From positions 77,872,001-77,936,000 of the forward strand of contig OX597826.1 of the NCBI GenBank assembly GCA_951406725.2: DNA of 64,000 bases. Direction: 5' to 3'. Source of the DNA: Octopus vulgaris (lineage: Eukaryota). The position numbers were made by a program, and so were the translations under genes. Shown in pieces: positions 1,280-57,867 of the stretch. Under the pieces are notes generated by a model that was not told the DNA's origin, did not search any database, and saw nothing but the letters and a program-made list of their open reading frames with translations. Numbering within the stretch: position 1 is the first letter of the stretch; each line of letters opens with the position of its first letter.

Positions 1280-1589
1280 GCATATATGTATATGTGTATG
1301 TAGGCAAGCATGTGTGTATTTATATTCGCCTCTCTGACTGATTAGAATAAATCTAGCACTATTATTGGATGCAACCGCTAAGTAGATAATGGTTTTATTT
1401 ATAAAAGTATGTCTGACCTCAGACTTGTCGTATACTAATAAGTTGTTGCGTCTGGATGGAAACAAAGAAGTCCGTAGCTACTGACCGTTGGCGATTTGTG
1501 TGTCAAATGCTTAGAAACGCACATATACAGTGAGAATATATGTACACTGATATATATATATACACCATAGATATTACGAAAACAAGGCA

Positions 1590-1785
1590 ATGTGTGAATT
1601 TCTGTGTTGTCGTGCGGCTTGCTAGACAAAACAGCATAATCTTCCTCAAATCAAAACATGTCGAATTGGGGAAACGAATAGGGGCATTAGGTGATATGGC
1701 ATGATGGCCACTGTTGGAACATCACTGATCGTATGCTTGTTATGTCATGCTGAAACCGACTAAAAAGTCAGCGACACATGGTAGC
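1590..1785 (+). mobile_element. Family C short interspersed repeat, degenerate copy
   Basis: cttgctagacaaaacagcataatcttcctcaaatc ... catgatggccactgttggaacatc...gatcgtatg matches the copies at 3071-3975. Confidence 0.55.
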
Positions 1786-2804: not shown

Positions 2805-3070
2805 TAATAGAATTAGGAAAAAAAAAACCCAAAAAAACAAAAAATAACAACAAAACAAAACATTATTGCACTTATTCGAAGTCTGCATTATTATTACACA
2901 AAAACATTAATGTGAACTCAGCTCCTTCCAATTAGCAATTAAGCTACAAAGAGTAGTTTCTCACTAAAACACTACGCCAGAAGATCAGAAGAGAACGCAT
3001 CCTCATTGCCACCAATATTTCAACCATACGCAGTGAAAGGAAAAAAAACAAGACAAAAAGAAAAAAACAC

Positions 3071-3638
3071 AGAGCTGAGACGAGAGAGCCGCTTCGTGAT
3101 CACTCAGCTTGCTAGAAATAATAGTCAAAATCCCATCAACCCAAAACTTACCATCTTAAAAGGGCAAATCTAAGATGCCCTGAGTAGTGTTATCCCAGAT
3201 ATTTAATATAAGGGGCAAAGACAGGATAGTCATGTATGGAAATCCTTTGACCATAGATCGTACATAAATGAGTCATCGGCTGCTTAAGGATCCGTTCACT
3301 CTTTCTTTAAATACGTCAAACAACGAAGAGCCTATGCATAGTCGCTCGACCTGCTAGAAATGACAGCTAAATGTCCTTCATATCACACACATGCTGTCTT
3401 CAACAATGGAAGCACATTGAATAATGTAGTCCTAGAAGCACCATGCCCGATGACCTTTCTTATTCTGATGCAAGGCCAGCAATTTTGAGGGGAGGGGAAG
3501 TGGAATGCATCGAACCTAACGTTGAATCAGTACTTGTCTTATCGATCTTTAAACGATGAAAGGCTAAGCTGACCTCTGGGACATTTCAGATCAGAACGTA
3601 AAGACGGGTGAGATGGCGCTCAGGATTTTCTATAGCGC

Positions 3639-3690
<52 letters not shown>

Positions 3691-3975
3691 TTTGTTTGTT
3701 ATCGATCTGCTGGTTCAGTGATGATCTGAGGTTAAAAAATCAAGAACCATGACCACGGAACAACGTGGTAATTTCTGTGTAGTTACTTGATCTGCCAGTA
3801 ATAGCAACCAAATCTAATTCATTTCAACTCGTTAACGCATTAAGAAAGGGAAGGACACGTAGGATGATGTAGCACGAGATTAATCATGGTTTAAGTAAGA
3901 AGGAGAAGAAAAAAAGGAAGACTTGATCAGATCAAGCTTGGTCAAAGCTGAATTGTGTAACAACAGCAACAAAAC
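3071..3975 (+). mobile_element. Three head-to-tail family C repeats (about 3071-3290, 3315-3750 interrupted, 3755-3975)
   Basis: Each copy has the block ~aacgagRgagcc..cgtggtcRctcgRcYtgctagaaatagcagcYaaatctccYtc, then ggacacattggataatgtag-like and gatcataggtc-like blocks; the last copy ends in an (AAC)-rich tail. Confidence 0.7.
3468..3645 (-). mobile_element. SINE family A copy nested in family C
   Basis: Degenerate reverse complement of the 63234 copy (atgaaaggc..ag.tgacc..., cagaacgtaaagacgg). Confidence 0.75.
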
Positions 3976-4062
3976 CACGGTCAAAGAGCAACCTGTTTCT
4001 AATTTATTTAGCGAACCAATGAAGTGATTTCGTTTACTATACATACATACATACATACATAA

Positions 4063-12643: not shown

Positions 12644-12719
12644 CTGTACCACCAAAATATTGACACTTCTACATATATCTCAATGTATAATATTGTATTT
12701 ACGACTAGCGACATTGAAA

Positions 12720-12895
12720 CCTACGAAACAGCCTCAACGTTGTCACCGAAACTATTAAGAATATCAGCCAAATGTCCTTCAAGTAACACTCTGATGTTTT
12801 AAAATACGAAACGAAATACCGGATAATGTAGTTGTAGACTGTTCGCGATTGAAACAACGTCTGTCTAGGTTGTGGTTAAACAACACTATTATTAT
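12720..12895 (+). mobile_element. Family C repeat, degenerate
   Basis: agcctcaacgttgtc...tatcagccaaatgtccttc...ggataatgtagt...gttaaacaacac. Confidence 0.55.
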
Positions 12896-21445: not shown

Positions 21446-21842
21446 TCTTTATATATAAAAGTGAAGTTGTGTGTCTGTCTCCTACGATTTAGATTCCTAA
21501 CTACTCCCACATTTTGCGGTGCAGTGTAACCAAAACCGGGTATCTTATAGTCGTGATTCATATCGAGCCCTTCTGGGTATTAGCGCGCGTCTACGATGAG
21601 TCTACGATTTTTAAAATAATTTACCATCATTTTTTCCATTTTGATGTATTTTTTCGCTATTATATAAGGGAAGTAACTCTCTAAAAATGTCTACGATGAG
21701 TCAACGATTTAAAAAAAAAATTACCATAATTTTTCTTTCCATTTTTAATGCAGTTTTTTGCTAATTTTTGGCTATAACTCTCTAAAATGCTTATATAGTT
21801 ATTTCCCTTACAAACCCGAGCAACGCCGGGCGATACTGCTAG
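21446..21842 (+). mobile_element. Non-autonomous Helitron (397 bp)
   Basis: Starts TC (tctttatatataaaag) after an A, has a subterminal hairpin cccgagcaacgccggg, ends CTAG before a T, with no TSD: canonical Helitron termini. Confidence 0.85.
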
Positions 21843-22110: not shown

Positions 22111-22718
22111 TTACATAATGTAAGGGGTATTCCATAATGCCGGAGGTATTCCACAAAACCGAGAGAATTCCATAATGCTGGGATTATTCCATAATTCCTA
22201 GAGAATTTCATAATGCCAGAAGTATTCCATAATTCCGAGAGAATTCCATAATGCCGGGAGTATTCCATAATGCCGGAAGTATTCCATAATGCCGGAAGTA
22301 TTCCATAATGCCGGAAGTATTCCATAATGCCGGAATTATTCCATAATTCCGAAAGAATTCCATAATGCCGGGAGTATTCCATAATTCCGAAAGAATTCCA
22401 TAATACCGGAATTATTCCATAATTCCGAGAGAATTCCATAATGCCGGGAGTATTCCATAATGCCGGGAGTATTCCATAATGCCGGAAGTATTACATAATG
22501 CCGGAATTATTCCATAATTCCGAAAGAATTCCATAATGCCGGGAGTATTCCATAATTCCGAAAGAATTCCATAATGCCGGAATTATTCCATAATTCCGAG
22601 AGAATTCCATAATGCCGGGTGCATTCCATAATGCCGGGTGTATTCCACAATACCGGAAGTATTCCATAATTCTGAAAGAATTTCATAATACCGGGAGTAT
22701 TCCATAATGTCGGAAGTG
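22111..22718. repeat. Minisatellite, 32 x 19 bp (consensus ttccataatgccggaagta)
   Basis: Units start at 22111, 22130 ... 22700; 589 bp = 31 x 19, so no net indels. Confidence 0.97.
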
Positions 22719-22844
22719 TCATAATTTCACGGGTATCACCTACTACCTCCGTATTCACGAGTATATAACTACAGTGCCATAATGTCACGAGTATCACCTA
22801 CGACCCCGTAATCAAGTTAGTCACCACAACTGATTCTTAATCCA

Positions 22845-23260
22845 AGAGTCAAAGAAGGAACCGAAACGCGCTCTCTCGGTTGGCAAAAATTACAACTCAA
22901 TCTCTTGATAATATAAACTCTTACAAGGAAGGACATTTGTATAATGGTGTCAAAATTTGGCACAAGGCCAGCAACTTTCGGATAAATCGTTTACATCGAA
23001 CTTATTTTATCGATCTTGAATTGATGAAAGGCAAAGTCGAACTCACTTAAATTTTTAACTCAGAACGTAAAGCCAGAAGAAATGTTGCGAAGCATTTTGT
23101 TCGCCGCACTAACAATTCTGCCCGTTCGCCGCCTTCAACATATTGCATGATGCGTAAAAGAAAACAAAAATAAAGAAGGCAGGATGGTGTCGGCTGGAAC
23201 GCTTTTAAACATAGATCTCCTCAATCAGAGACGACTCAGTGTTACCAGAAAGAAGAGTAA
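22845..23260 (+). mobile_element. Family C repeat interrupted by SINE A
   Basis: aaggaaggacatttgtataatg before the insertion; caggatggtgtcggctggaacgcttttaaacatagatctcctcaatcagag after it. Confidence 0.55.
22946..23133 (-). mobile_element. SINE family A
   Basis: caaaatttggcacaaggccagc...gatgaaaggcaaagtcga...aattctgcccgttcgccgcc. Confidence 0.85.
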
Positions 23261-30076: not shown

Positions 30077-30490
30077 ACGGTTTCGAATTTTGACACAAGG
30101 CCAGCAATTCTGGGGGAGGGCGCTAGTCGATAACATCGACCGCAGAGCTCAACTCGTACTTGTTTTATCGACCTCCGAAAGGATGAAAGGCAGGGTCGAC
30201 GATTGTTTAGCGCTAGGTCAGTCCTGATTGTGAGGAGGGGGTCTAGCCGATTACATCGACCCCCAGTGTTTCACTGGTTCTTAATTTATCGACCCTGAAA
30301 AGATGAAAGACAAAGTCGACCTCGGCGGAATTTGAACTCAGAACGTAGCGATGGACAAAATATCCGTAAGCAGGGACGTATGTTCGATGACCCTTCATTG
30401 GGGATCATTCCGCCATTTCAGTCGTACGTAGGGCTGCATTGAGATTTAGCTGCTATTTCTTGCGAGTCAAACGACAAAAAGTTAGACGCA
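30077..30490 (-). mobile_element. Nested cluster: SINE A (30077-30200), family C (30203-30490) interrupted by SINE A (30231-30372)
   Basis: Two gatgaaagRca.Rgtcgac cores; family C blocks ttgtttagcgctaggtcagtcctgat and gagatttagctgctatttcttgc. Confidence 0.75.
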
Positions 30491-56448: not shown

Positions 56449-56650
56449 GGAAATAACGTGGAGCCTTTATTCAAACGAATAAGGCTACGCCTTCTGTAAA
56501 TAGCAGTCGAAACCTCCCTAAATCTTAGCCTTCAGACTTCACAAAATGACACAGAAGAAATTAGATATCTAGACATATTATGATGGAAAAGTATAAAAAA
56601 AAAAGTGGGGATTCATCACAGGTGTTGTGCATCTGAAATGAGTCTGGAAA
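56449..56650 (+). mobile_element. Family C repeat, degenerate
   Basis: aacgtggagcc...aaatagcagtcgaaacctccctaaatc. Confidence 0.4.
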
Positions 56651-57459
56651 AAACTACTTCGGGTCTTTCAGCTAACTTAAGGAGCATCTACACCGTTACT
56701 TGCTCCGTTAGAAAAAAATAATAAAACTCACCCTCATCCTCTCTCTATTTCTCTCTCTCTCTTTTTCTCTCTCTCCCTCTTTCTCTCTCTTTCTCTTTCA
56801 AATCACATTGAAGAAGGTGGATGTAGATACATTTGCAAAAAGACTCAAAGAAATGTAAGTTGAACGAACGGCGAAGAAACATTCACGTTGGATGGCCACA
56901 TCAAAGTTACGTTGCATCTGATAAGACTGCATCCGAGAAAGAACTGCTAAACCAATTATTTTGTAAAAGATAATTTTTCATAGAAATTTTTGTGAGACGC
57001 AAAACTAACGGAGTTTCGGCAAATGGAAACCCCACCATTACATTTTCACGAAAACGTCTTCAGATTTCTGTTTTCAACAGAATTGCAATTACTTTAAACA
57101 AATAATTAGAAGCATGCATAAAAATTAATAGTTGATATTTCTAACATTCGCATCTAATTGAAAAGATACTCTTTAAATAAAATAAAAAATCATATTAAAT
57201 TACAATGATTTGCTCTCAAACTGTGTTCGACTTTCGGAAAATTATATTTAACATTTTAGGAAGCTGTATGCGGCATTAATATGTTTCCACAACATCTGAT
57301 GAGAAGCCGTCTGTTAAATGTCTGCTCGATAATCACTGTGTGGGGCTTAATAACAACCCCTAATACAAACGTGTTCCCTGTAAAATTAAGTTATAAATAG
57401 TAATTAGAAAGTTTTGTCTGAGTCGATCAAAATCAGAGCAGATGTGAACCACTAAAATA

Positions 57460-57670
57460 TAGTTGTTGATCTTATGTAGTCTCAGCTCAGCTCTGATAAT
57501 TCAGACTCATATGAAAGGCTTTCCAAATTTGACGTTCCTGTCTTTTTAGTGCGTGAATTTAATGTGTTCTTTCGTTATGTGAGAAGCAGAAGGTGTGGTT
57601 TGAGAGATGTTTTGGCTTTTATTCCAACGATTCAAATGACCACACAGAGCATCCTCTAAGGATTCGTCGG
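57460..57670 (-). mobile_element. Family C repeat, degenerate
   Basis: gttgttg...cagctctgat...ggctttcca...tcctgtcttttt...ggtgtggtttgagagatgttttggct...gaccacacagagc. Confidence 0.55.
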
Positions 57671-57867
57671 GATAGAGTTTTTGTTGTTGTTTGATCCAAG
57701 TCAGTTTTGCTGGATCAGATCCACGAGGAAAGACGCAGGATTATATTGTTCAAGGTACTCTTTTATTAAAGACGGAAGAGTATGGATGAGGAAGCCACCA
57801 GGAAGCCACCAGACGCCAGTGACGATTAGAGACCGTCAGCATTTGGATGTTGCTTTACGTAAGATAG

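Follow-up and report, generated by a model that had tools for sequence, protein, structure and literature searches.

A decayed, high-copy retroposon family of Octopus vulgaris with a predicted HDV-like ribozyme head

A 64,000-nt stretch of the Octopus vulgaris genome (contig OX597826.1, C13 in our numbering; hereafter the window) carries copies of a decayed, high-copy, non-autonomous non-LTR retroposon, as its short length, lack of coding capacity, simple-repeat tail, 5′ truncation and target-site duplications (TSDs) show. The element is ~220 bp long: a 65-nt head is followed by an A-rich middle region, and the 3′ part terminates in (CAA)n. Its head very probably descends from an HDV-like ribozyme, counting together the readings in which that ribozyme was active and in which it was a relic. 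We lean towards an extinct retroposon of the NARTc/SIDE type, in which the predicted HDV-like head released the RNA and a LINE copied it in trans, and we consider this somewhat better than an even proposition. The element would have been transcribed by Pol II read-through within host transcripts, and the predicted ribozyme in the 5′ 65 bases would have cut just 5′ of C1, freeing the element RNA. The freed RNA would next have been copied in trans by a LINE reverse transcriptase, with target-primed reverse transcription starting at the (CAA)n tail and insertion likely at CAA/TAA-rich sites. Present copies, the three members of the trimer in the window included, are predicted to be inactive.

Abundance was measured in 100 unselected 10-kb stretches, taken at round coordinates on 30 contigs, with a profile built from 50 near-full-length copies elsewhere in the genome, outside the window. 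This search gave 97 matches per Mb covering 11,432 bases (~1.1% of the sampled bases), and the same stretches reversed gave none. Extrapolation to the 2.80-Gb, 227-contig genome yields roughly 270,000 fragments. Most copies are solitary, with a single match in 26 of the 49 positive stretches, and 5′ truncation is frequent. Local pile-ups of the family were seen at L186 and L099 (14 and 8 matches in 10 kb, both orientations). The median non-CpG divergence from the consensus was 0.277, i.e. ~28% (75 sampled copies), and the least diverged copy, L006, stood at 0.126. At 0.0036 substitutions per My, the rate used in PMC13282606, divergence places the family very roughly at 65–150 My. Genome-wide searches for exact matches returned 0 for a 34-base head pattern, 4 for a 21-base and 2 for a 24-base pattern, with no intact young copies among them.

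Traces of insertion were scored in 57 near-full-length copies. The 11-mer ending at the 5′ boundary matched the 3′ flank with a mean score of 7.16 vs 6.52 after permutation (P<5e-5), and TSD-like matches of at least 9 of 11 were found in 9 of the 57 (P=1.5e-4). At a position 12 nt farther upstream the mean score was somewhat higher too (P=0.001), but strong matches, at 3 of 57, were not in excess (P=0.46). Of 135 heads, 31 had YAAYAA in the 30 nt before them, vs 5% of control stretches. TSDs, tail and YAA preference are the hallmarks of a retroposon that integrates by target-primed reverse transcription.

No LINE sharing the head or tail of the family was found among 30 reverse transcriptase (RT) loci, 107 RT-like regions and 32 endonuclease/5′ loci, a small sample for a partner that would be as decayed as the family itself. 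The sequence upstream of 30 endonuclease loci, with two extensions, contained no match to the head or to an HDV descriptor, many of these loci probably being 5′-truncated. The top RT matches, which by our own reading belong to a young CR1-like family and three RTE-like families, were rejected as partners on their differing tails. RT fragments adjoining family copies were likewise rejected, and on inspection of L092 and L099 are nested insertions. The best RT matches are dominated by a very young family of CR1-like LINEs (L106–L134), which has a 949-aa open frame and ends in (TTA)n. Candidate clades for the partner, suggested by the elements described in PMC5786205, are RTE, R4/Dong and Ingi/Vingi.

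The head was reconstructed from 137 dispersed copies, aligned from 386 matches after seven array loci and one duplicate had been dropped. Most of these heads came from loci selected by similarity; the 28 from unselected stretches gave the same pattern, noisier at CpG and 5′ positions. Five CpG sites were restored and the tied column at nt 4 was set to G. The result is close to the consensus drawn by eye in the preliminary description of the window. P1 (nt 1–5/30–34) has 5 bp, with an unpaired C29 opposite C6; the 5′ strand of P2 occupies nt 10–15; and the 3-bp P3 (nt 16–18/26–28) is closed by a 7-nt L3 (nt 19–25) of the U-Y-N-N-C-G-Y type. The L3 motif of HDV-like ribozymes includes U20, C24 and G25, as the Rfam CPEB3 model agrees, and their equivalents are all kept in the head. 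A 2-nt J1/4, a 6-bp P4 with a GNRA loop and a J4/2 (nt 53–57) with C-N-R-A follow. The order P1, P2, P3, 7-nt L3, P3′, P1′, P4, CNRA and P2′, from which an HDV-like head had been proposed, thus stands in the 137-copy reconstruction far beyond chance.

Columns upstream of C1, the first base of P1, were at background in the 137 heads. With nothing conserved there, the element starts on base 1 of P1, as a cleavage product would, and a tRNA or 5S head upstream, named earlier as what would speak against a ribozyme, is absent. The consensus contains no match to a Pol III A or B box (the best A box has 3 mismatches), ARAGORN found no tRNA, and no Rfam family reached threshold for the head. A Pol III SINE with a tRNA, 5S or 7SL head was rejected on these grounds, together with the lack of conserved sequence upstream of C1.

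A strict HDV descriptor, with a C-G pair in P1.1, fails on the reconstructed head. A relaxed descriptor, which tolerates a mismatch at the top of P1, accepts any single P1.1 pair and asks for 5 of 6 pairs in P2, was composed after the consensus was known and is uncalibrated on known ribozymes; it fitted the consensus at position 0 and none of 200,000 dinucleotide shuffles. Its one match in 1.45 Mb, both strands searched, was a family copy, L006. The pairings alone, free of sequence constraints, were absent from 20,000 dinucleotide shuffles and arose in 24 of 200,000 mononucleotide ones. The Rfam CPEB3 model aligned to L006 in the same register (10.8 bits vs a threshold of 35, E 5.9); CPEB3 was one of four Rfam families with E up to 10 on this copy, and this sub-threshold alignment is a hint only.

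Contigs from three studies cover the stretch around L006, which is on the strand opposite to an atlastin exon and ~4 kb downstream of it. Contigs from runs that we guess to be RNA bridge the heads of L006 and of copy 1 in the window. They say nothing on cleavage, because neither strand nor ends are shown and because L006 is opposite to the atlastin strand. Beside the atlastin locus, G000:C1:204,887,900-204,896,000 (L290) holds a tandem array >8 kb in length, both strands of which contain long open frames.

Several features of the fold depart from the HDV-like norm. The short P1 that had been listed as a weak point is real, with 5 bp and a terminal C·C mismatch; HDV-like P1 helices usually have 6–7 bp (PMC4908430), and a P1 C-C mismatch has been proposed as the cause of inactivity in a mosquito HDV-like RNA (PMC3774820). 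P1.1 is one U21-A35 pair and has no C-G, a single pair being also what the L1Tc ribozyme works with. From P3′ to P4 the head counts one base fewer than the CPEB3 model. The extra base in J4/2, a second concern, seems minor, as the catalytic C could be the second C. C54 fits as the catalytic base if P2′ starts at nt 58, where P2 has 5 of 6 pairs and the fold with P3 and P4 scores −10.2 kcal/mol. A perfect P2 slipped by 2 nt, with P2′ from nt 60, scores −18.3 kcal/mol, ~8 more stable in a nested evaluation; with P2′ at nt 60 the catalytic C is therefore misplaced. The nested minimum-energy fold (z −2.4) has P2 and P4 plus an alternative hairpin instead of P1 and P3, a competing hairpin at nt 26–37 being present in it.

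The main rival reading is a head catalytically dead already in the master copy. Such a head would have come from a LINE's HDV-like ribozyme, and an internal Pol II promoter or a protein-binding site within those 65 bases would have determined where the element begins. The short P1 with its C·C, the single P1.1 pair, the better slipped P2 and the shortened P3′-to-P4 stretch all suit a relic of this kind; misfolded SIDER consensus heads occur in trypanosomes (PMC3383444), and Pr77 of L1Tc also serves as a promoter. Against it, five pairing elements, the L3 motif and C-N-R-A are all present together in the reconstructed master, with P1 running from base 1, and there is no Pol III promoter as another route to the 5′ end. 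We regard death in the master copy as less likely than not.

Covariation between paired positions, which had been suggested as a check, did not appear: the mean log odds were 0.29 for pairs vs 0.17 for non-pairs (P=0.23, 137 copies), with only two P4 pairs nominally significant. A score from 41 heads had suggested covariation (4/500 shuffles), but we discard it: CpG decay by itself changes C-G to U-A on both sides, and the 137 heads gave a null transition-association test. Absent covariation is expected because the copies decay neutrally from one master. The test is of little use on such copies, and the fold is left without that support.

It is very unlikely that the head came from another structured small RNA, or is a multi-hairpin sequence that fits the HDV grammar by coincidence. 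A nested fold that favours P2, P4 and the alternative hairpin over P1 and P3, the null covariation and the lack of an Rfam family at threshold would agree with such an origin. It is opposed by the rarity of the pairings alone (24/200,000 shuffles) and of the full pattern (0/200,000), and neither a tRNA nor any other Rfam family accounts for the head.

The preferred reading, an extinct ribozyme-headed retroposon, has counterparts elsewhere. Non-autonomous retroposons with HDV-like heads are known as NARTc, SIDER and R2 SIDE (PMC3383444, PMC3185411, PMC4035085, PMC6765202, PMC3414825). NARTc, RIME and SIDER resemble the family in being short non-coding retroposons of similar size whose first ~70 nt form, or are predicted to form, an HDV-like fold, in having C as first base and in occurring in tandem. 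NARTc is described as 263 nt long, with a ribozyme that cuts at +1 and a single-pair P1.1 (PMC3383444, PMC3185411), and trypanosomatid HDV-like ribozymes as starting at C1 (PMC4035085). Unlike these elements, the family has an animal host, ~10^5 copies, (CAA)n in place of poly(A), a shorter P1, no partner LINE found and a cleavage that is predicted only. With L1Tc it shares the predicted single-pair P1.1 and, judging from L1Tc primers, the lack of GG after P1′. The R2 and R2/R1 SIDEs of Drosophila combine a 5′ HDV-like ribozyme with a LINE-type 3′ end and are mobilised in trans (PMC3414825); they are rare and rDNA-specific, whereas the family is dispersed, favours CAA/TAA repeats and accounts for ~1.1% of the bases sampled.

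Bipartite RTE/Ingi/Vingi derivatives (PMC5786205) and RTE-related SINEs with microsatellite tails (PMC6007223) are like the family in having no small-RNA head, a microsatellite tail, variable TSDs and 5′ truncation. They differ in that neither end of the family was matched to a LINE of the same genome in the loci sampled. Three 10-letter motifs of the family were absent from the PMC5786205 supplement. With CPEB3/HDV (Rfam RF00622) the head shares the order and nearly equal spacing of P1, P2, P3, L3, P4 and J4/2, and it differs in its 10.8 bits vs 35, the 5-bp P1, the U-A rather than C-G in P1.1 and the ambiguous P2 register. Metazoan non-LTR retrozymes are characterized by 150–300 bp units, type I hammerheads, tandem arrays and circular RNA (PMC7761336). 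Both they and the family are non-coding, have a ribozyme-like motif and are sometimes in tandem, but in the family a hammerhead core is absent, most copies are solitary and the ends are of SINE type.

Known ribozyme-headed non-autonomous retroposons are those of trypanosomes and Drosophila rDNA, and by comparison this family appears notable for its scale and its non-canonical P1 and P1.1. In the literature consulted, no HDV-like head was reported in a cephalopod repeat, and no ribozyme is mentioned in the portions of PMC9115989 and PMC13282606 that were available; Repbase, Dfam and the Zenodo library of PMC13282606 may already contain the family. It is conceivable, at a likelihood we put short of even, that a compact HDV variant, its P1 reduced to 5 bp and its P1.1 to one U-A pair, would cleave, and that it released from host transcripts an animal family that spread on the scale of SINEs without a Pol III promoter. 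If so, a resurrected head would cleave and widen the known HDV fold space, and a ribozyme could replace the tRNA head of a major SINE. A cleaving head would mean that a major cephalopod repeat spread by a ribozyme route, not by Pol III, with a fold missed by a strict descriptor. Other ‘unclassified SINEs’ may then conceal similar heads; PMC13282606 leaves 893 of the 900 octopus SINE families with recent activity unclassified. The head offers a cheap test of minimal P1 length and P1.1 strength. Should it not cleave, it would be a well-preserved fossil of a lost LINE's ribozyme, of modest interest.

Copies in the window were located with the profile built from copies elsewhere (Table 1); the reversed window gave no match. 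Of nine copies listed in the preliminary description, seven are clear. The one at 22845 has a weak head (E 0.91 in the window-wide search) and a clear 3′ part, and the one at 56449 is unsupported window-wide, reaching E 0.002–0.007 only in a 340-bp local search. One further copy, a 5′-truncated one at 57674-57784 on the minus strand, was added. An Rfam scan of 3000-4010 found nothing relevant, and among the 150 listed of 521 matches in a scan of the whole window all were microsatellite-driven and below threshold.

Table 1. Family copies in the window with associated repeats, and the best-preserved copy elsewhere in the genome. Positions are those of the window except in the last row.
Feature	Position	Strand	Evidence
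Dispersed copy, internally deleted, 37% diverged	1580-1747	+	profile
Copy 1; head ~3073-3137, decayed 3′ end to ~3295	3073-3259	+	profile match 3079-3259, positions 16-192, E 5e-24
Copy 2, 5′ two-thirds	3316-3450	+	profile match from 3319, positions 13-146, E 8e-30
Other abundant short repeat, ~190 bp, inserted in copy 2	3450-3640	-	141 BLAST matches (fetched genomic loci + window)
(TAA)16 microsatellite at insertion in copy 2	3641-3688	+	
Copy 2, 3′ end	3699-3740	+	profile positions 184-225, E 0.002 window-wide
Copy 3, full length, CAA-type tail	3756-3977	+	profile match 3752-3977
Dispersed copy, 33% diverged	12716-12844	+	profile match 12719-12844
Dispersed copy interrupted by another repeat; head (weak) 22840-22947, 3′ part (clear) 23173-23244	22840-23244	+	
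Dispersed copy interrupted by another repeat; part of head at 30441-30476, tail at 30202-30230	30202-30476	-	
Head-to-tail pair; 5′-truncated 57674-57784, then full-length copy 57458-57667	57458-57784	-	
L006, best-preserved copy, 12.6% diverged; sole copy matching the relaxed descriptor	L006:1405-1631; G000:C1:204,885,840-204,886,070	-	

The three copies between 3073 and 3977 had been described as a head-to-tail trimer of ~250-nt units. They do lie head to tail, but the trimer is not a clean one, copy 2 being split by a 190-bp minus-strand repeat, which by its likeness may be a tRNA-type SINE, and by (TAA)16. As had been noted, no copy is intact: none of the three heads (3073, 3316, 3756) retains the fold. 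Copy 1 has 33% non-CpG divergence, with P1 and L3 broken. Copy 2 has lost P1 and has a mutated L3; its 21% is biased low because this copy seeded the first search. Copy 3 (32%) has a 7-bp direct repeat on either side (3752-3758 and 3974-3980), possibly a TSD of its own; a match as long occurred in 4 of 165 other tail flanks. The members are 45–60% identical pairwise and share 3–6 derived changes, the same as unrelated pairs, so the three neighbours are no closer to one another than to distant copies. We infer three old insertions, stacked because the element prefers sequence resembling its own tail.

The earlier suggestion that such tandem copies are cut into ~250-nt monomers, as in retrozymes, extended here to monomers that circularise and re-insert as multimers, is already largely refuted, and we hold it to be the least probable of the readings. 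Among the 97 matches, 13 neighbour pairs lie within 100 bp (8 separate same-strand, 3 opposite, 2 colinear). The 8 same-strand pairs exceed the ~1 of any kind expected by chance, as a retrozyme would predict, yet 5 of the 8 fall in one 10-kb stretch and over half of the positive stretches hold one match. Against retrozymes also stand the unlikeness of the trimer members and the fixed, unpermuted ends, with a constant head, a (CAA)n tail, 5′ truncation and TSDs. The hammerhead core CUGANGA is absent from both strands of the consensus.

Young arrays derived from the family bear on the same question. A 107-bp unit from the 5′ half, with 539 exact 24-mer matches on at least 15 contigs, is dispersed singly and in tandem or inverted arrays (L200, L203, L214, L224 and L269–L288, e.g. 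G000:C29:33,369,800-33,370,830 and C28:13,932,860-13,935,720). Such young, head-derived tandem arrays would suit a retrozyme, but they have lost the G of L3 and carry mismatches in P1 and P4, folding as a plain long hairpin, and by visual count they are embedded in a longer, unrelated shared repeat at ~11 of 20 retrieved loci. This longer repeat presumably has Helitron-like ends. The 3′ half, which is free of the ribozyme, also forms arrays and does so equally well; arrays therefore do not need the ribozyme. Its young tandem arrays have 126–145-bp units ending in the CAA tail and lie on the smallest chromosomes, C28–C30 (L039, L042, L045, L048, L053, L056, L057, L059 and L263–L266).

Other repeats in the window include a decayed, DNA-transposon-like coding fragment at 1960-2760, which we assume to be of mariner type, a 19-bp tandem array of 31 copies at 22127-22717 and a 100-bp dimer at 21589-21787.
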